From IMG/VR virus record IMGVR_UViG_2751185969_000015, positions 1 to 37,691 of that record: 37,691 nt of DNA. One strand, written 5' to 3'. The stretch is from a virus (lineage: Duplodnaviria > Heunggongvirae > Uroviricota > Caudoviricetes). Positions 803 to 36,003 of the stretch are shown here, piece after piece. A model generated the notes under the pieces. The model made no database searches. It was not told the origin of the DNA and saw only the letters and a list, made by a program, of their open reading frames with translations. Made by a program: the position numbers and the translations under genes. Each line of letters begins with the position of its first letter. Position 1 is the first letter of the stretch.

Positions 803-1705
803 TCAGTAGTTATGTACTGAAGGAGGTAATTCTTTATTCTTAAGTCTCATCCATGCGGAAAGATTCGTTGGTCCGTCTGGCTCATTAATATCAACATCTC
901 GTGTATGGTTGATTAAAACATCTCTCGCCATATCGATAATACGGGAGAACTCATAACCGCAGTCATGACATCTGCCGGAATAGTTCGATTGAATTTGTTT
1001 TAATGCCGGATACAGTTCGCGGAATAATGCCTGTGAACGGTTGGCATAATCCCATAACCATACAAGGCTGTTTGCTTCTTTTGCAGAAAGCTCGTTGGTT
1101 TTCTTCTCTTGTTTGCCGATAAACTCACCTTCAAGCACTACCCTGTGGATGTACTCTACGGCTTGCGGTATCTGAGATGCATCAAGCTCTTCAATACTTT
1201 CCACATTGAAACGCTGATGAATCATTGCATAAGCTTCTGGGTACATTAGATGCTTTTTGCTGACCAGCATATTTACAGCATCACGAAGCGGAGTCCTGTC
1301 ATCAACAGATGTTTTCTTACGTGCATTTTCTGCCTTTCCCTTTGTCCAGTAGTCATGCAGTACAGTAAAGCATTCTTCCTGGTACTGAATCAGTTTATCA
1401 CGGATGTCAGCACGAACTTTCTCAGGGTTGATGCTGAACAGCCATCCATTTAACTTCTTCAGCGGGATGCATAAAAGCTTACGTAACTTGCCATCAGCGG
1501 CAACCATAGAGATATCTCTACAGTTGAATTTGTCCTTCATTTTACGCAACTTAACAGATTGACCAGTCCAGTCGATACCAATGTTTTCCACAATTTGACG
1601 CATCGCTACATAAGTCACTCCGGCAGCCATAGCGGTTAAAATCTGCTGACCATTGAAAGGCACGTAAGAGGTGTTCACTGCTTCTAAAATTGCTATACTA
1701 TTCAT
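803..1705 (-). CDS. ant: Antirepressor Ant (P22 immI type)
   Basis: Translation from the internal ATG (1703-1705) begins [37 protein letters not shown]..., matching P22 Ant as I recall it. GGAG-like RBS upstream. The track ORF start at 1771 is an upstream in-frame extension. Confidence 0.85.
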
Positions 1706-1767
1706 GTTGGTTTTTCTCCACGGATTTACCGACAACCGAAGCCCTGACTGTTCCCGCAGTTGGGGCT

Positions 1768-1989
1768 TCACTGTTTTTGTAAGTCACTGTAGCTATAAAG
1801 CCACTGACCACTCATTTTTGATTTGATTGACTCTACTGAATCACGGCAAGGAATGATTCCGCCTGACATCATTCTGATCTCCGTAAATTCACCACTCCTT
1901 ATCGATTCAATGCCATCAATGTTAACTAAAGATTTACCTCTACCAAGTGCATTCTCATAGCCAATCTCATCAACCTCAATAAACCTCAT
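1768..1989 (-). CDS. Hypothetical 73-aa protein inserted between arc and ant
   Basis: [29 protein letters not shown]...; its ATG overlaps the arc stop (ATGA), suggesting translational coupling. No family recognised. P22 has no gene between arc and ant. Confidence 0.5.
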
Positions 1990-2234: not shown

Positions 2235-2483
2235 ATGGCTAGAAACGATCCGCACTTTAACTTCCGTATGCCTTTGGAAGTAAGAGAAAAATTGAAATTA
2301 AGAGCAGAGGCTAACGGAAGGTCAATGAACTCTGAGTTATTACAAATCGTTCAGGATGCTCTCTCCAAACCATCACCTGTAAGCGGGTATCGTGATGAAG
2401 AAGAGAGGCTGGCCTCATTAATCTCGGAACGAGTAAAAGAAGTTGCGGCTGATATCCTTAGAAAAGAAAAAACCCGCGATTAA
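2235..2483 (+). CDS. mnt: Mnt repressor
   Basis: MARNDPHFNFRMPLEVREKLKLRAEANGRSMNSELLQIVQDALSKPSP..., closely matching P22 Mnt. Confidence 0.9.
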   Translation: MARNDPHFNFRMPLEVREKLKLRAEANGRSMNSELLQIVQDALSKPSPVSGYRDEEERLASLISERVKEVAADILRKEKTRD

Positions 2484-2489
2484 GCGGGT
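2461..2489 (-). terminator. Terminator between convergent mnt and the minus-strand operon (bidirectional; stronger on minus strand)
   Basis: Hairpin ACCCGC-gattaa-GCGGGT (2472-2489) with a long U-run on the minus strand (complement of 2461-2471); only a weak T-run on the plus strand. Confidence 0.6.
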
Positions 2490-2497
2490 TTAGTTGG

Positions 2498-2719
2498 TTA
2501 GTTATCAAAAAGTCCGTACGTTTCTTCTTCTTCAGGTGTAAGGGGAAGAATCTCTACTCTATCTATAGATACCTTTTCAATGTACCCATGAGGTCTACTT
2601 AAAATTAAAGCTCTCTCATGCCACAGAACTCCAAGAATGTGATACCTCCCAGCATCGCCTTTTACCCTGGCTCTTCCTTTGATTCTTGGCGACATAATGC
2701 CATATTTTTTCTTTGCCAT
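2498..2719 (-). CDS. Hypothetical 73-aa basic protein, last gene of the RHH/Bro-N operon
   Basis: ORF MAKKKYGIMSPRIKGRARVKGDAGRYHILGVLWHERALILSRPHGYIEK...; its ATG overlaps the stop of the upstream gene. No family recognised. Confidence 0.5.
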   Translation of the reverse strand: MAKKKYGIMSPRIKGRARVKGDAGRYHILGVLWHERALILSRPHGYIEKVSIDRVEILPLTPEEEETYGLFDN

Positions 2720-3447
2720 TATGCAACATTACTCCCATGAATCAGGTGTTGTAGTGCTTTAACACCTTCCGCATTGTAGCGGAATACTTCCACCTGTTTG
2801 CTGGAATGCGCAGATTTATCCAGGAAGAACTTACCGTACTGCTCAGTTTTGAGGTTGTTTGCGTTAGCAATGCGACCAATCTTGTTGGCCGTTACTCCAA
2901 GCTGCTCTGCAACCTCCCCTGCTGAGTAGTAATGCTCTTCTATTGCTGGAAGAGGTATTGCATTAAAACCAACGATCGGGTTGATTATGCTTGCTGCCGC
3001 AGTCTGCTTTGCTTCCGGCGCAAGATTTGGCATCAAATCGAACAGATTGGTAACAGCTTCAACCGTCATTTTCAATGTTCGCGCCTGGCGATACTCAACA
3101 AGTCCACTCGACGATTTACCGCTTTTAATGTGCGCTTCTTGCATACTTTCAAGTTGGTCTACAAGTGAGCGGCGAACAGCTTTAGATTCACGAGCAGCCA
3201 CTCGAAGGGCTTGCTTAATTGACATAACAACTTTTTCAGAAGTTGTCTTGTTTGATTTTTGAACTACGAAAATTTCGTAGTGCTCACCTTCAAGTTCATC
3301 CTTAATGCGTGCAATAAAGTCGTTATTTCGGACTTCTTTTTCCCCGCACTGTCTACGAGCATGATTGACCATCTCTAACAGGTACTGGCTATCAATGGTT
3401 TTATCCGTGACAACGGATCCGATGTTTGCTACATTCTTAAAAGTCAT
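2719..3447 (-). CDS. Antirepressor-like protein (KilAC / P22-AR-C type C-terminal domain)
   Basis: Start taken at internal ATG 3445-3447 (MTFKNVANIG...) with an AAGGA RBS. C-terminal segment YYSAGEVAEQLGVTANKIGRIANANNLKTEQYGKFFLDKSAHSSKQVEVFRYNAEGV resembles phage antirepressor C-terminal domains. Assignment from motif recall only. Confidence 0.5.
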   Translation of the reverse strand: MTFKNVANIGSVVTDKTIDSQYLLEMVNHARRQCGEKEVRNNDFIARIKDELEGEHYEIFVVQKSNKTTSEKVVMSIKQALRVAARESKAVRRSLVDQLESMQEAHIKSGKSSSGLVEYRQARTLKMTVEAVTNLFDLMPNLAPEAKQTAAASIINPIVGFNAIPLPAIEEHYYSAGEVAEQLGVTANKIGRIANANNLKTEQYGKFFLDKSAHSSKQVEVFRYNAEGVKALQHLIHGSNVA

Positions 3448-3535
3448 TAGGCATTCCTTATGTGGTAGTAAGGGTGTGACATAGGCCGCCAGCAGCACAC
3501 TGGCGGTTTTCTTTTTGCGCAGTCCGGCGCACCAA

Positions 3536-4162
3536 TCAATGAATCCATTCCTCGCCGCGAAGTTTTGCCAGCATTGGCTGAGCGTTCTTTACGACAAAAT
3601 TGTTGGTATCAAGATTCTTCATTTCACGAAGAAGTGATTTCTTGGTTTCTTCTGACATGTAGCGAGTCTCATATGCAATATCGTAAATCCTTCCTGAAAG
3701 CTCAGAACCAATTTGCTTCATTCCTGGGTAGATGTGTTTGCACGTTTGTTGACTCTTCTCCATCCACAATTGTAAGTAGCAGAGATTAACCAGTTCTTCG
3801 TCAGTAAACTGTTTTGCAATCGGTGAGCATTCTGCCTGCCGATCCAAAATATCCAGCACCCAGCGGCGGAACTCTTTGGCTACCGGAGTGCGAGCAAACA
3901 TCGCGATTAGGTGGGCACCGCGTAGTGAGAAAACTCGCACTTTTTTGCGATAATTTCCTGAGGTACTCACTTCGAGTACCTGAGTCATTCCGGCGCTAAA
4001 CTCATCGCTATACTTGTTATAAATCATTGTTACTGCACGACTATTTGCGTATTTAAGTGCAGATGCAATATTAGATGATGTAAACCAAACACCATGCATA
4101 TCACGGGTGGGCACCAACTCAACTCCGTGGAAGTTGTAATCTGATTTTGCTACAATACTCAT
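3536..4162 (-). CDS. Bro-N domain protein (putative antirepressor)
   Basis: Start at ATG 4160-4162 (MSIVAKSDYNFHGVELV...) with an AAGGAAA RBS. Clear Bro-N signature: ...WFTSSNIASALKYAN...RVFSLRGAHLIAMFARTPVAKEFRRWVLDIL. Confidence 0.7.
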   Translation of the reverse strand: MSIVAKSDYNFHGVELVPTRDMHGVWFTSSNIASALKYANSRAVTMIYNKYSDEFSAGMTQVLEVSTSGNYRKKVRVFSLRGAHLIAMFARTPVAKEFRRWVLDILDRQAECSPIAKQFTDEELVNLCYLQLWMEKSQQTCKHIYPGMKQIGSELSGRIYDIAYETRYMSEETKKSLLREMKNLDTNNFVVKNAQPMLAKLRGEEWIH

Positions 4163-4235
4163 GTTAGTTTCCTTGCATACGGTTACTGACATAGAGGCCC
4201 GGTTTGTGTTCGCGCACTGCCGGGCTTCACTATTT

Positions 4236-4409
4236 TTATTGGATGACAACATCGCCCTTTGCCTCAAGTTTCATCAATAACTCCATTCGATAAGCTATCT
4301 CTGCCTGAATTGACCTATGGCATCTTTTTGCTGATTCGCGGATATGTGAATCAACCTTTTCTGTAAAACGAACCTGACGCGGCTTGATGGAAGATATCTT
4401 TTCAGTCAT
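4236..4409 (-). CDS. Small ribbon-helix-helix-like regulator (57 aa); not in the ORF track because it is under 60 aa
   Basis: Hand translation: MTEKISSIKPRQVRFTEKVDSHIREAAKRCHRSINAEIAYRMELLMKLEAKGDVVIQ. Strong AGGAG RBS. Beta-strand then helix pattern typical of Arc/MetJ/CopG-type RHH proteins. First gene of the operon divergent from the S24-like regulator. Confidence 0.5.
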   Translation of the reverse strand: MTEKISSIKPRQVRFTEKVDSHIRESAKRCHRSIQAEIAYRMELLMKLEAKGDVVIQ

Positions 4410-4508
4410 TATGCACTCCTGTTTTTAAAAAACTCATAATCTCACTTTTTGTAGTTTGATTATTCACTCACACTCAGTATGAGTCAATGAATTTTTTATG
4501 GTGAACTA
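4410..4508. promoter_or_regulatory. Divergent intergenic control region between the RHH operon and the S24-like regulator
   Basis: 99-bp AT-rich spacer between two divergent start codons; expected to hold divergent promoters and operators. No specific boxes assigned. Confidence 0.4.
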
Positions 4509-5150
4509 ATGAATTTTGACGATCAATTCCCATCAAGAGTATCTCTGGCAAGACAGTCCAGGGGTATGACGCAGGCGCAGTTGTCAAAATTAGCTGGTGT
4601 TGTTCAACGTCAAATAGCTGCATACGAGGGTGGTGAGGCTAAACCACGGCTTCGGGTATTGCAGGCATTAGCCAACGCATTAGGTACTACAGCTGAGTGG
4701 TTAGCTCTAGGTGAAGGTCAGGGTCCGGGAACAAAAAACGTCATGCCTGACGTTCTGGTAAAGCAAATACCAATCCTCAAACTAGATGAAGTTATGCATT
4801 ACCTAAACACAGGTGAACATTCATCGTCTAGATTTCATCCGGCAATATACAATGTTGGTGACTCTGCATTTGCATTGACTATTGAAGGTGAAGCTATGAC
4901 TACAAGTTCAGGTATTAGCTTTCCCAGAGGATCGGTTGTCACGTTCAGCCCTCTAGTAAAAGCTAAAAGCAAAGATTATGTAATAGCATCATTGGATAAA
5001 GAGCAAATATTGAGCTTCAAACAGGTTTACATTGGTGAAATAGAGACAAACCTAGTATCCCTAAACCCAATGTATCCTAATATTCTTGTTAGAAATGAAG
5101 ATGTTAGTATTTTGGCAACCGCAGTTTACCTTGAAATCCCGTTGCTTTGA
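4509..5150 (+). CDS. CI/LexA-like regulator: XRE-family HTH plus S24-peptidase-like domain with Ser to Ala at the nucleophile position
   Basis: N-terminal HTH (GMTQAQLSKLAGVVQRQIAAYEGGEAKP). C-terminal domain aligns with the lambda CI C-terminal domain: AFALTIEGEAMTTSSG vs lambda [16 protein letters not shown], and SFKQV vs TFKKL. The Ser of the G-x-S-M motif is Ala; the catalytic Lys is retained. Confidence 0.75.
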   Translation: MNFDDQFPSRVSLARQSRGMTQAQLSKLAGVVQRQIAAYEGGEAKPRLRVLQALANALGTTAEWLALGEGQGPGTKNVMPDVLVKQIPILKLDEVMHYLNTGEHSSSRFHPAIYNVGDSAFALTIEGEAMTTSSGISFPRGSVVTFSPLVKAKSKDYVIASLDKEQILSFKQVYIGEIETNLVSLNPMYPNILVRNEDVSILATAVYLEIPLL

Positions 5151-5210
5151 TATCCTTTAGGAAGCGACACATTATCATCTGGTATCCTGCTCAAAACTAA
5201 GGAGGTTGGT

Positions 5211-5660
5211 GTGAGTGAAAAATTATCAGTTGAGATTTACAGGGATGCCAAAAAATTGATTAAAAAGGCATTGCTGATTTCCCTATCTTTGTTAGCCATT
5301 GCCATTGTTTATTTTGTGGCAGACAAAATCTATACAGAACAAAAAAATAGCAAAAAAAGCGCTGAACTGATTATGCGAGCCGAAAATGCTGTCAAGGGTA
5401 CCCAACCTAAGGTGTTCAATAGAACAGACCTTGGCGAAAGTCACTCTATTTCCATTTGGTTTATTAATGATTCAGATAAGCACATTCTTGTAGAAAAAAA
5501 CGGTGAAAAATCGTTGTTTTCTACAGGAGGATATGTATCCGGTGATATCCATGCATATCATCAGGCCGGAAAGGCATGCGAAACCCTGTCTTTTTCTATG
5601 GATTCAAGTTCTGTGATATCCGCTTCTTGCGATTTTGATGATTATTACCTTAAAAAATAG
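5211..5660 (+). CDS. Single-pass membrane-anchored protein (moron at the P22 sieA-equivalent locus); GTG start
   Basis: GTG start with AAGGAGG RBS 5 nt upstream. N-terminal hydrophobic helix LLISLSLLAIAIVYFV followed by a roughly 110-aa soluble domain. AT-rich. Lies downstream of the S24-like regulator on the same strand. Confidence 0.55.
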   Translation: MSEKLSVEIYRDAKKLIKKALLISLSLLAIAIVYFVADKIYTEQKNSKKSAELIMRAENAVKGTQPKVFNRTDLGESHSISIWFINDSDKHILVEKNGEKSLFSTGGYVSGDIHAYHQAGKACETLSFSMDSSSVISASCDFDDYYLKK

Positions 5661-23369: not shown

Positions 23370-23656
23370 GGCTTAATCTTTCCCTCCTTCAGCAGTATCG
23401 CCTGCGTCCTGATCACGCCTTCGAGGTGGTAAAGTCTGGCGTCTTTGTTGTCGAGATTATGGGTGCGTCGGTCGATTTCATCGTGACACGCGCTACAAGC
23501 CCATGCGCCGATCAGGTCGTCAGGCTTCATTCCCGTTCCGCAAATTCCAGCCATCCGGTAATGTGCCAGAACTGTAGTTTCAGGATTACCATTGCATACG
23601 CCGTAAATACGTACCTGACATTCTCTGCCGCGCGCTTCTTTGCGTAGGTTAGCCAT
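23366..23656 (-). CDS. YbcO-like / DUF1364 family protein (putative nuclease)
   Basis: 96-aa Cys/His-rich ORF (CQVRIYGVCNG...CSACHDEID) resembling prophage YbcO-type proteins; assignment from recall. Confidence 0.55.
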   Translation of the reverse strand: MANLRKEARGRECQVRIYGVCNGNPETTVLAHYRMAGICGTGMKPDDLIGAWACSACHDEIDRRTHNLDNKDARLYHLEGVIRTQAILLKEGKIKP

Positions 23657-24378
23657 TAAGCAGCCTCCCCTGTTACTTTCAGCATTCCGTTATCGAGCAG
23701 CTTTCTGGTCAGCCACTGTTGACCACGCCCAGTGATTTTTGTGGTGAACGATATCTGTATTCCGTGATTTGTGTTGACCGCTGTTTCTTTCACTGTGAAA
23801 TAGCCGCGATCCATATATTCCTGCATTGGCACATTGCGCCGGGAACCTGAAGCAATAAGGATTTTGTGATCGCGCATCCACGCAAACAGTTTGTTTGGAC
23901 CAATTCCAACAACCTTTGCAAAGTTTCCAATCAAAATTCCGCTGGCCTCGCCAACGCGATCGGCAAACTCAACTTTAGGTGCGGCAATTGCGAGCTGGTT
24001 TTCCAGTTGCATTTTCTGCTCAGCAAGATCAGCAGCAAGGCGCAACGCTTCCGGTAGCGTTTTGGGGATATTAACCGCAGCTTCTTCAAGCTCTCGCCAG
24101 CGGTCAACAAGGCGAGCGGTGAACTCTGGCGACAACTGGGCAACAACGACAATACTGTCTCGCTTACCTTGTTCGCCTTCGAAGACGTAATGCTCGTACT
24201 GAACATTGAACCCTAAGTTATTGATTCTTCCGGAAACCTCAATTTGAGGAAGCCGGATAACACCATTTTTAGCCAGCGTTTCGATGGTACGTTTCACATT
24301 GTCATGACGCTTACCAACCAACTCAGCAATTTCAATGCTTGTCATTTTGATGGCATTGCCATTTATTAACTCATTCAT
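23656..24378 (-). CDS. Rha-like phage regulatory protein with KilAC-type C-terminal domain (antirepressor family)
   Basis: N-terminal ...MTSIEIAELVGKRHDNVKRTIETL... and C-terminal ...GNFAKVVGIGPNKLFAWMRDHKILIASGSRRNVPMQEYMDRGYFTVKET... are typical Rha / AntB-KilAC regions. Confidence 0.65.
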   Translation of the reverse strand: MNELINGNAIKMTSIEIAELVGKRHDNVKRTIETLAKNGVIRLPQIEVSGRINNLGFNVQYEHYVFEGEQGKRDSIVVVAQLSPEFTARLVDRWRELEEAAVNIPKTLPEALRLAADLAEQKMQLENQLAIAAPKVEFADRVGEASGILIGNFAKVVGIGPNKLFAWMRDHKILIASGSRRNVPMQEYMDRGYFTVKETAVNTNHGIQISFTTKITGRGQQWLTRKLLDNGMLKVTGEAA

Positions 24379-34383: not shown

Positions 34384-34811
34384 AACAAATGTCACTAATT
34401 GAGATGGATGGATTTCTGAAAGGGAAATGCATCCCCCGAGATTTAAAGGTTAACGAAACAAATGCTGAATATCTTGTCCGTAAGTTCGGTGAACTTGAAT
34501 CAAAACTGGAAACGGCGTTGCGGGAGTGTCGTTCTGCTGGAATCACGATTGATAACCTTGAGGCTAAATGCGCGAAGATGGCTGCTGAAAATTCCTCGCT
34601 TAAGCAATCTGAGAAGGAATTTAATGACTTTTGTCGTGAGGAGTTTAGCGAATGGGAAGATGATATTACTGAAACCCAAGCCACCGATGCTTTTCTGGCT
34701 GAAGTACGGGCGCAGGGCGTGGAGATGTTTGCTGACCATCTGTTGTGCCCAGACCTTGATGACACTATCCGTGACTTTGCTGCCCAGCTTCGCAAAGGAG
34801 GCAACCAGTGA
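34380..34811 (+). CDS. Paralog A of a tandem early-left gene family (coiled-coil protein)
   Basis: ATG overlaps the upstream stop (ATGA). C-terminal ...[12 protein letters not shown] is shared with paralog B. The track start at 34362 is a GTG extension. Confidence 0.55.
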
Positions 34812-35440
34812 GCGAAATTAATTACCAGGCACTGCGTGAGGCGGCGGAACGTGCAATTCCAGCAATGGAACGCCTGTTAATGTTGCCAGCTGATGATGAT
34901 TTGTTAAGTGAACAGGAACTTAAAGATTACGGTGTGGATATTGATGCGCTCAACGCCTTCAAATTTCTGGCCGGACCAGAAACCGTGCTGGCACTACTGG
35001 ATGAACGGGAAAGAAACCAGCAATACATCAAATCTCGTGACCAGGAGAACGAGGATATTGCGCTAACGGTAGGGAAGCTGAGAGTTGAGCTTGAAGCCGC
35101 TAAAAAGTGTATTGCAGAGCTGGAAAGCAATTGCGGGGCGCTGGTGGCGGAATGCCAAAGCAAAAAAGCAGCACTTGAGGCAATTCTTAGCCATTGCCCA
35201 ATTAATCATCCAGATATAGACATCGCATGTATAGCGAACATCGCTCATAACGAATTAGGCGAGGCGAAAAGCAGTACATCTAAGGCATCCCTTGTAGAAA
35301 TACAGGCACAAGGGGTGGAGGCATTCGCTTTGACGATGCGCGATACAGGAGATGATCCATTTTTTGATTCCGTTGCTTCTGCTTGCGCGGATGCAGCTGA
35401 TAGGTTCGCTGCCCAGCTTCGCAAAGGAGGCAACCAATGA
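34808..35440 (+). CDS. Paralog B of the tandem family (GTG start)
   Basis: N-terminal 96 aa identical to paralog C ([36 protein letters not shown]...LRVELEA); C-terminus shared with paralog A. AAGGAGG RBS lies inside the conserved repeat. Confidence 0.6.
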   Translation: MSEINYQALREAAERAIPAMERLLMLPADDDLLSEQELKDYGVDIDALNAFKFLAGPETVLALLDERERNQQYIKSRDQENEDIALTVGKLRVELEAAKKCIAELESNCGALVAECQSKKAALEAILSHCPINHPDIDIACIANIAHNELGEAKSSTSKASLVEIQAQGVEAFALTMRDTGDDPFFDSVASACADAADRFAAQLRKGGNQ

Positions 35441-36003
35441 GCGAAATTAATTACCAGGCACTGCGTGAGGCGGCGGAACGTGCAATTCCAGCAATGGAAC
35501 GCCTGTTAATGTTGCCAGCTGATGATGATTTGTTAAGTGAACAGGAACTTAAAGATTACGGTGTGGATATTGATGCGCTCAACGCCTTCAAATTTCTGGC
35601 CGGACCAGAAACCGTGCTGGCACTACTGGATGAACGGGAAAGAAACCAGCAATACATCAAATCTCGTGACCAGGAGAACGAGGATATTGCGCTAACGGTA
35701 GGGAAGCTGAGAGTTGAGCTTGAAGCAGAAGAGAAAACATCAGCAGCTAGACTTGAGGCGCTCGACCGCACCCACAAAATGTTCCAACGGGAACAATGCA
35801 GGGCAGAGGCCGCAGAGAAGCGTATTGCTGAACTGGAAGCGCGGGAAGTTCAATTACCGACTCGCTACGACCTTCGATATGGACACCCGATAAATGCAGA
35901 TGAGCGACATGTCATGATACCTAAAGAAAATGGCAGTTGGCTTTACCTGATTGACCTAGAACACGCATTACGCGTCGCTGGCATTCGCATCAAAGGAGAG
36001 TGA
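35437..36003 (+). CDS. Paralog C of the tandem family
   Basis: Same N-terminal module as B, unique C-terminal module (...EEKTSAARLEALDRTHKMFQREQCRAEAAEKRIAELEAREVQ...). Confidence 0.6.
   Translation: MSEINYQALREAAERAIPAMERLLMLPADDDLLSEQELKDYGVDIDALNAFKFLAGPETVLALLDERERNQQYIKSRDQENEDIALTVGKLRVELEAEEKTSAARLEALDRTHKMFQREQCRAEAAEKRIAELEAREVQLPTRYDLRYGHPINADERHVMIPKENGSWLYLIDLEHALRVAGIRIKGE

Follow-up and report, generated by a model that had tools for sequence, protein, structure and literature searches.

A probable second antirepressor control cassette of the immI type, with a CI-like regulator and a sar-type antisense RNA, beside mnt in a P22-like phage genome

The immI region of phage P22 is a textbook case of layered control (Mnt, Arc and the antisense RNA sar), and its biological role is still debated. 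The genome studied here, a stretch of 37,691 nucleotides (nt) from a P22-like (Lederbergvirus-type) phage with its late genes on the minus strand (IMG/VR record IMGVR_UViG_2751185969_000015; hereafter the window), raises the question of what a second set of regulators and antirepressor-like genes may be doing directly beside such a region. Read from left to right, the locus consists of ant, sar, an additional open reading frame (ORF) of 73 amino acids (aa), arc, mnt, a four-gene module on the minus strand, a gene for a regulator with a helix-turn-helix (HTH) and an S24 domain, a 149-aa ORF, and homologues of the DNA-ejection genes gp16 and gp20, whereas the primary immunity region is distant from the module, at ~28.1-29.1 kb. 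The four co-oriented genes that a preliminary description, made from the sequence of the window, had placed at 2498-4409 are all present, and that description had read their arrangement as a mirror of an immunity switch.

Our results indicate that the module and its divergent regulator probably form a self-contained cassette for antirepressor control of the immI type, functionally paralogous to mnt-arc-sar-ant. This proposal is carried by the gene content of the locus, its conserved architecture, the homology and covariation of an antisense RNA that we name sar2, the displacement of one pair of regulators by another, and the loss of catalytic residues in the divergent regulator. Like P22 immI, the cassette occupies the 'ant moron' location between gene 16 and the tailspike gene, within the late operon, and it displays a divergent, putative maintenance repressor, an operon that opens with a small ribbon-helix-helix (RHH)-like protein, and a sar-type RNA over the ribosome-binding site (RBS) of an Ant-type gene bearing a P22_AR_C domain. 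Several components differ from their P22 counterparts. Mnt is an RHH tetramer, whereas the divergent regulator of the cassette has an HTH_3 domain and a Peptidase_S24 fold, so the cassette is no strict member of immI; its small RHH-like protein, RHH57, is not detectably related to Arc; in its Ant paralogue, Bro-N replaces P22_AR_N; and it adds a KilA-like protein of 242 aa (p242), a basic protein of 73 aa (p73) and a probable second antisense RNA, sar2 itself being unrecognised by the Rfam sar model.

The equivalence of both types of control is best appreciated in Escherichia coli 55989, where the cargo (the sar2 terminator and the Bro-N, p242 and p73 genes) is ~99% identical to that of the window, and where it is preceded by a 57-aa gene of the Arc family and, in divergent orientation, a Mnt-like gene of 106 aa; both sequences cease to be similar precisely at the stop codon of the small RHH gene. 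An Arc/Mnt-type pair driving the same cargo, together with the presence of the sar-type RNA, bears out the likeness to an immunity switch that had been proposed for the module. The same alternation is found among 80 viral contigs that carry p242, a gene that nearly always comes after Bro-N or a P22-type ant: the S24 and RHH57 regulators are present in ~22 of them, and most of the others have Mnt/Arc-type RHH genes at that place. Taken together, these sequence comparisons point to a non-orthologous displacement, in which the S24 regulator stands for Mnt and RHH57 for Arc. Beside the Mnt-like regulator of E. coli 55989 we also noted a 121-aa ORF (locus L038, 5734-6099, minus strand) with an HExxH motif (HECAH), which could be a small metalloprotease partner.

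The antisense RNA sar2 (76 nt; 4163-4238, plus strand) occupies the interval between the genes of the small RHH protein and of the Ant-like Bro-N protein, opposite the start codon and Shine-Dalgarno sequence of the latter gene, and aligns with the canonical sar, promoter and terminator included. Its extended -10 element, TGCTACAAT (4148-4156), is separated by 7 nt from a G located just past the complement of the start codon, the same distance as in sar; the 5' hairpin exposes the anti-Shine-Dalgarno sequence in its loop, and the 3' hairpin (GAAGCC...GGCTTC), followed by a T run, is the terminator. The two-hairpin fold is common to sar2 and sar (-33.3 vs -32.3 kcal/mol; z -6.2 vs -5.95), and its shape is kept in 12 sequence variants of sar2 whose stem sequences differ. 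When the window was searched with the Rfam sar model (RF00262, E <= 1), only the canonical sar was found (1706-1772, plus strand; 87.3 bits), with nothing at 4163-4238 or 3442-3516. A covariance model built from three sequences, namely sar2 as found in the window, a variant that differs by one base (L012) and the sequence of a further locus (L034), recovered the canonical sar at 1706-1779 (39.5 bits, E 3e-6), as well as variants in 15 of the 16 loci searched. In the sar2 alignment, 96.3% of the cells are paired, compared with 80% in shuffles and 34-46% in slid controls, and both sides have changed in 15 of the 20 pairs, values obtained on an alignment that was fitted to the covariance model. 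By these comparisons sar2 is homologous to the canonical sar, and it is presumably expressed as such. With a plain MAFFT alignment as input, RNAalifold yielded a poor consensus from misaligned stems, and we relied instead on the folds of the individual sequences and the covariance model.

A second antisense RNA of ~75 nt, here named sar3 (3442-3516, plus strand), is predicted opposite the start codon and Shine-Dalgarno sequence of p242. Its promoter-like site comprises a -35 element GTGACA (3407-3412) and an extended -10 element TGCTACATT (3427-3435), with a predicted start near 3442, and its two-hairpin fold includes a terminator hairpin (3483-3509) followed by a T run. Among p242 homologues with 69-100% protein identity there are 35 distinct upstream variants, 32 of which retain the extended -10 element and the hairpin with its U run; the predicted RNAs measure 61-74 nt, and the spacer between the promoter hexamers diverges freely. 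Eleven distinct terminator hairpins were observed, some of which bear compensatory changes. Since a search of the window with the sar2 model missed sar3, we do not claim that both belong to the same family. With its putative promoter and terminator, sar3 is a good candidate for an expressed antisense RNA, less secure than sar2.

The divergent regulator (4509-5150, plus strand; HTH_3 9e-13, Peptidase_S24 1.3e-12) is separated from RHH57 by 99 nt. It shares with the lambda CI/LexA family the N-terminal HTH_3 domain, the C-terminal S24 fold and the general-base Lys, as the Lys of its SFKQ motif aligns with lambda K192. It differs from that family in that the alignment places GEAM where lambda CI has GNSM and LexA has GMSM, with the catalytic Ser replaced by Ala; in that the scissile Ala-Gly is missing, since the aligned site reads K-L-D-E-V (Leu-Asp), an assignment that depends on the alignment; and in that it would control an accessory operon rather than lytic promoters. 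The regulator described previously as S24-like does have an S24 fold, and to judge by these residues it is a pseudo-peptidase in this allele. Within the regulator family, the Ser to Ala replacement occurs in 6 of 22 members, namely the clade of the window (99%, 92%, 76% and 71% identity; a member with 81% identity keeps Ser) and one distant member; Lys is replaced by Arg in 4 of 22, and the canonical Ala-Gly is found at the aligned site in 1 of 22. Several family members also bear a long C-terminal extension resembling a coiled coil. Three alleles of the regulator can be distinguished, A being that of the window, and B and C being ~46% identical to it.

These residues bear on a different interpretation, according to which the cassette would be an SOS-triggered accessory induction module whose S24 regulator self-cleaves on RecA filaments like a private LexA, the derepressed antirepressors then helping to induce this or co-resident prophages. 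The HTH and S24 architecture is that of CI/LexA, the Ser-Lys dyad is kept in alleles B and C and in most distant family members, and antirepressors controlled by LexA are known in Gifsy phages (GfoA/GfhA/GftA), in coliphage 186 (Tum) and in N15 (PMC3121763). However, the window's allele and most of its close relatives have lost the nucleophile (GEAM or GDAM) and carry Leu-Asp instead of Ala-Gly at the cleavage site, and the dyad has been repeatedly eroded across the family, with a single occurrence of the canonical Ala-Gly. Moreover, no LexA box (CTGT-N8-ACAG, with one mismatch at most) was found in the control region at 4410-4508, and the main repressor is itself of the cleavable lambda-CI type, with an intact GNSM motif in its C-terminal domain, which makes the module dispensable for SOS induction. 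Given the Ser to Ala replacement and the missing Ala-Gly and LexA box, the switch is unlikely to sense DNA damage; the SOS sensitivity implied in the preliminary description finds no support, and we regard a module triggered by SOS as very improbable. Judged by its sequence, the S24 allele of the window is a pseudo-peptidase that would probably act as a non-inducible maintenance repressor rather than as an SOS switch. In the whole window, the CTGT-N8-ACAG pattern (with one mismatch at most) occurred 24 times compared with 12.4 expected, the largest count in the shuffles being 23.

The 99 nt between both regulator genes (4410-4508) contain a strong minus-strand promoter for the operon (-35 TTGACT at 4487-4482, a 17-nt spacer, and -10 AATAAT at 4464-4459; 10 of 12 matches) together with palindromes. 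For type A, the candidate operator is a 13-bp palindrome, ACTCA-GTA-TGAGT (4472-4484), which overlaps the -35 element and the spacer, and an inverted repeat ACTCATA/TATGAGT is located at 4432-4438 and 4478-4484; its counterpart in type B is a perfect palindrome of 17 bp, ATATGAAT-A-ATTCATAT, which takes up the spacer between the -35 and -10 elements. By contrast with these operator-like palindromes, which vary with the regulator allele, RHH57 and one segment of the control region are constant: all three regulator types share the sequence TATGAGTTTT, located downstream of the promoter, which is a candidate site for the invariant RHH57.

The RHH57 gene (4236-4409, minus strand) is the first of the operon, and its ATG is preceded at 6 nt by AGGAG, in agreement with the strong RBS assigned to it earlier. 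The protein matches phrog_10182 over its full length (E 2e-37); the matches to RHH families, restricted to residues 11-49, are weak and mutually agreeing (ParD_like 8e-4, Arc 0.011, AmrZ, TprA), and BLASTP found no similarity to the Arc of the window. Compared with diverged copies, in which synonymous sites are nearly saturated, the ratio of nonsynonymous to synonymous substitution rates is 0.04-0.12, therefore RHH57 is a real gene. In each of the 35 viral contigs that were found via RHH57, its gene is the divergent neighbour of the S24-type regulator gene at a distance of 99 nt, and RHH57 is 81-100% identical across the three regulator alleles, its predicted DNA-reading beta-strand KPRQVRF being invariant. 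The cargo behind it varies: it comprises a protein of the Bro-N/P22AR_C kind (39-99% identity) in some cases and a P22-type Ant in others, while p242 and p73 may each be present or absent. Cassettes of types B and C are embedded among the tail genes of siphovirus-type phages (tape measure, minor and major tail proteins) and of myovirus-type phages (baseplate hub, wedge); thus, the cassette is a portable moron of late operons. A toxin-antitoxin reading, in which RHH57 would be ParD-like (E 8e-4, under the cut-off), was rejected on the basis of the immI-type context and of the replacement by an Arc-family gene.

The cargo of the window begins with a 208-aa protein (3536-4162, minus strand), the Ant-like member of the cassette, in which the matches to Bro-N (PF02498; 1.9e-10, 41.6 bits against a cut-off of 25.6) and P22_AR_C (2.4e-14) both exceed the Pfam cut-offs. 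It belongs to phrog_245, 'anti-repressor Ant' (6e-53), which also holds the canonical Ant of the window (803-1705, minus strand; P22_AR_N and P22_AR_C), and in a BLASTP comparison of both proteins the C-domain alone aligns (29% identity over 70 aa, E 2e-9). The second cargo protein, p242 (2719-3447, minus strand), matches phrog_1726, 'anti-repressor', over its full length (6e-100), with no Pfam or NCBIfam match, PF04383 and PF03374 included. The preliminary description was thus right about the Bro-N domain, and the antirepressor C-domain that it had assigned to the 242-aa protein has to be relocated, since the sequence-detectable C-domain of P22 Ant sits in the Bro-N protein. The predicted fold of p242 resembles viral proteins annotated as 'antirepressor C-terminal/KilAC' and 'KilA', and combines an N-terminal alpha/beta domain, weakly similar to KilA-N/APSES or Rha, with long helices and a predicted C-terminal winged HTH of the MerR/excisionase type; in profile comparisons with hhalign, neither the Bro-N protein nor the Rha/ANT protein of the window was significantly similar to it.

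The last cargo gene, p73 (2498-2719, minus strand), encodes a basic protein (pI 9.4), as had been described, and its ATG overlaps the stop codon of p242 as TAATG, so that both genes are translationally coupled. A five-stranded barrel similar to SH3/Tudor/KOW domains is predicted for it (pLDDT 77), with a basic N-terminus and an acidic tail. It is an optional member of the cargo and its family is tiny: an exhaustive HMMER search retrieved two true remote homologues only, both lacking annotation. The operon ends at a terminator-like hairpin, AAACCCGC-loop-GCGGGTTT (2470-2491, minus strand), which lies inside the 3' end of mnt, has the mnt stop codon in its loop, and is identical in phage JEP4, in the record CP098187 and in E. 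coli 55989. The hairpin is therefore shared with mnt, as previously stated, but it has the look of a strong terminator on the operon side only, because the T run is found on the minus strand alone.

The nature of this cargo also admits an explanation in which the control would be immI-like and the output would not be antirepression: the Bro-N, KilA-like and SH3-like proteins would be produced for a short time upon infection and would act as regulators that bind DNA, or as effectors aimed at the host (transcription factors, for example, or growth-inhibiting 'Kil' functions). Bro-N and the winged HTH of the MerR/excisionase type are DNA-binding folds, the N-domain of p242 weakly resembles APSES/KilA-N, p242 lacks a sequence-detectable antirepressor domain, and its 'anti-repressor' labels are PHROG and UniProt annotations. 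On the other side, the 208-aa protein shares P22_AR_C and its PHROG with P22 Ant, the one biochemically defined member of the family, and p242 is almost always found behind an Ant-type gene, subject to the same tight control in three layers. We consider this explanation unlikely, and favor antirepression as the output of the cassette.

Under the proposed immI-type working, we infer that both regulators bind DNA, that the antisense RNAs are expressed, and that the cargo has antirepressor activity against the targets named below. In a lysogen, the CI-like regulator would bind the allele-specific palindromes that overlap the operon promoter and keep the operon off, taking the part of Mnt, and this repression would not be relieved by RecA/SOS because the allele lacks the nucleophile Ser, the scissile Ala-Gly and a LexA box. 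When the phage genome enters a regulator-free cell, the strong promoter would fire, and RHH57, in the part of Arc, would then shut it down, the cargo proteins being made as a short burst only. Because the cassette is part of the late operon and has the same orientation, antiterminated late transcripts would have to read through it to reach the tailspike gene, which would be why each cargo gene has its own cis-antisense RNA (sar2, and probably sar3) masking the RBS. The sar RNA of P22 and the read-through of late operons are established. This rationale also draws on published work on the interval (PMC2629481).

The cargo proteins (the Bro-N/P22AR_C paralogue of Ant, the KilA-like p242, and p73) would bind and inactivate CI-type repressors in trans, either those of resident heteroimmune prophages or that of their own phage. 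Such action may bias the lysis-lysogeny decision, and would add a third immunity specificity to those of immC and immI. A role as accessory antirepressor, or in competition between prophages, is plausible if P22 Ant and Fels-1 FsoA are taken as analogues. P22 Ant is known for its broad specificity, and both it and FsoA are accessory antirepressors that act on non-cognate repressors, FsoA being dispensable for the induction of its own phage and acting on the repressor of another prophage (PMC3121763); deletion of P22 immI lowers the frequency of lysogeny (PMC11016777). As for the number of such genes in the window, the preliminary description had counted four of the antirepressor type, and this count holds at the level of annotation, with the canonical Ant and a gene of the nin region (23656-24378; Phage_pRha and ANT) besides those of the cassette.

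Some points weigh against the proposed working and should be taken together. The similarity of RHH57 to RHH families is sub-threshold, and none to Arc was detected; 'anti-repressor' is an annotation label only in the case of p242; Bro-N, KilA-N-like and MerR-type domains being DNA-binding folds, the cargo could consist of transcription factors rather than repressor binders; the covariation of sar2 comes from the fitted alignment mentioned above; the independent variants of sar3 are few, and its promoter lies in coding sequence, where protein constraint could explain part of the conservation. In addition, no convincing sigma-70 promoter was found for the regulator gene.

Downstream of the regulator, the 149-aa ORF (5211-5660, plus strand), with a hydrophobic N-terminal segment, occupies a variable cargo slot, and had no match in Pfam, PHROGs, PADLOC or NCBIfam. 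The similarity between the window and its relatives ends at ~5215-5222, and the slot contains another ORF in CP098187 and none in JEP4. The ORF is probably co-expressed with the regulator in a lysogen; it is not a conserved part of the cassette, and sits where P22 has sieA. Its position raises the idea of a lysogen-protecting defence or superinfection-exclusion moron, in which the regulator and the downstream membrane ORF would be expressed by the prophage, and the operon would be a toxic payload for abortive infection, set free once the regulator is titrated by an incoming phage. The cassette does fill the slot between gene 16 and mnt in which P22 carries sieA (PMC2629481, PMC8022706), the ORF after the regulator is variable and has a hydrophobic N-terminus, and proteins of the 'KilA' type are named, in annotation only, for host killing. 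However, PADLOC assigned the operon proteins to no defence system, the one weak match being that of the C-terminal HTH region of p242 to mad1 (E 0.0035), and for the S24-type regulator it returned HTH-region models only; furthermore, the cassette architecture is homologous to that of immI, sar included, and the membrane ORF is not conserved with the cassette. Defence thus appears to be an improbable purpose for this locus, for which we retain the immI-type reading.

Regarding the origin of the locus, the block at 2400-5222 is found again, with 95-99.7% identity, in phage JEP4 and E. coli prophages, and is therefore not a chance arrangement. The order in JEP4 and CP098187 is tailspike gene, mnt, module, regulator, variable slot and gp16, without arc-ant, and most relatives likewise have mnt and the module with no arc-ant. 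The boundary gene mnt (2235-2483, plus strand; Arc-family Pfam match, 2e-27) is a chimera in the window: its 5', RHH-coding part is P22-type, and its sequence from ~2360 onwards is exactly that of the mnt bordering the module in JEP4, E. coli 55989 and CP098187. With a chimeric mnt and relatives that lack arc-ant, the module was not inserted into a canonical immI, which makes doubtful the 'inserted' switch of the preliminary description; rather, by the evidence of these sequences, the window joins two alternative 'ant moron' contents via the conserved 3' half of mnt. This conserved 3' half resembles a recombination point between alternative moron contents.

The core formed by the type A regulator and RHH57 is rare, being found in 28 of 5426 complete E. 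coli genomes (~0.5%) and in one phage isolate, JEP4, on which the literature holds no functional data for the module; in ~490 E. coli records (~9% of complete genomes) there is DNA that matches the cargo block at least in part. The interval was previously described as a hyper-variable 'ant moron' by Villafane et al. (2008), who drew the version of E. coli HS and remarked that, where antirepressor genes occur without arc, the control must be distinct from that of P22 (PMC2629481). Among these HS-1/CUS-3-type 'ant morons', the prophage of E. coli HS holds the same module, interrupted by IS3; that study contained no analysis of the regulators (PMC2629481), whereas the CI-like regulator, the RHH gene, the antisense RNAs and their distribution are worked out here. 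The S24-type cassette was known from prophage sequence and had never been dissected, and no well-studied phage, P22-like phages included, has the module as characterised genes, JEP4 being the only isolate that carries it. Other accessory antirepressor loci, such as those of Gifsy, Fels-1, 186 and N15, are similar to the cassette in having an antirepressor gene outside the primary immunity region with its own repressor (PMC3121763). They differ in being controlled by LexA or by the main repressor and responsive to DNA damage, whereas the cassette has a private, apparently non-cleavable repressor, predicted RHH feedback and putative antisense RNAs.

Two further observations concern other parts of the window. 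The additional 73-aa ORF between arc and sar/ant (1768-1989, minus strand) matches phrog_11805, of unknown function, over its full length, its stop overlaps the sar terminator, and it is also present in two other loci (L006 and L039); to our knowledge, P22 has no gene at this position. In the early-left region there is a tandem partial duplication, in which two plus-strand ORFs of 210 and 188 aa (34808-35440 and 35437-36003) share identical N-terminal ~96 residues.

Within the mosaic, at the intervals 3448-3535 and 4163-4235 of the window, breakpoints were observed exactly at the ends of antisense-RNA terminators, namely past the stop codon of the small RHH gene and past the T run upstream of p242, and therefore an antisense RNA and its gene behave as an exchange unit. 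More broadly, and as a tentative extension that we hold to be possible rather than probable, genes of the antirepressor type may travel as units of antisense RNA and gene, with the RNA terminator as the recombination junction, plugging into interchangeable regulator cassettes that would be either Mnt/Arc-type or composed of a pseudo-protease CI-like regulator and RHH57, with at least three specificities. A phage with two cassettes, such as that of the window, would then possess a tripartite immunity, and these units may serve as weapon and counter-weapon in prophage competition across podovirus-, siphovirus- and myovirus-type phages of Enterobacterales.

In the cassette, the logic of immI appears rebuilt with unrelated regulators, mobile between phage types, and probably with one antisense RNA per cargo gene. 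It would open the way to natural orthogonal repressor/operator pairs, of which the three alleles are candidates, to a CI-like protein that, by its residues, would be naturally non-cleavable, and to sar-like RNAs missed by Rfam. Furthermore, the cassette offers a way to ask whether accessory antirepressors mediate cross-induction or anti-immunity among co-resident prophages of E. coli and Salmonella.

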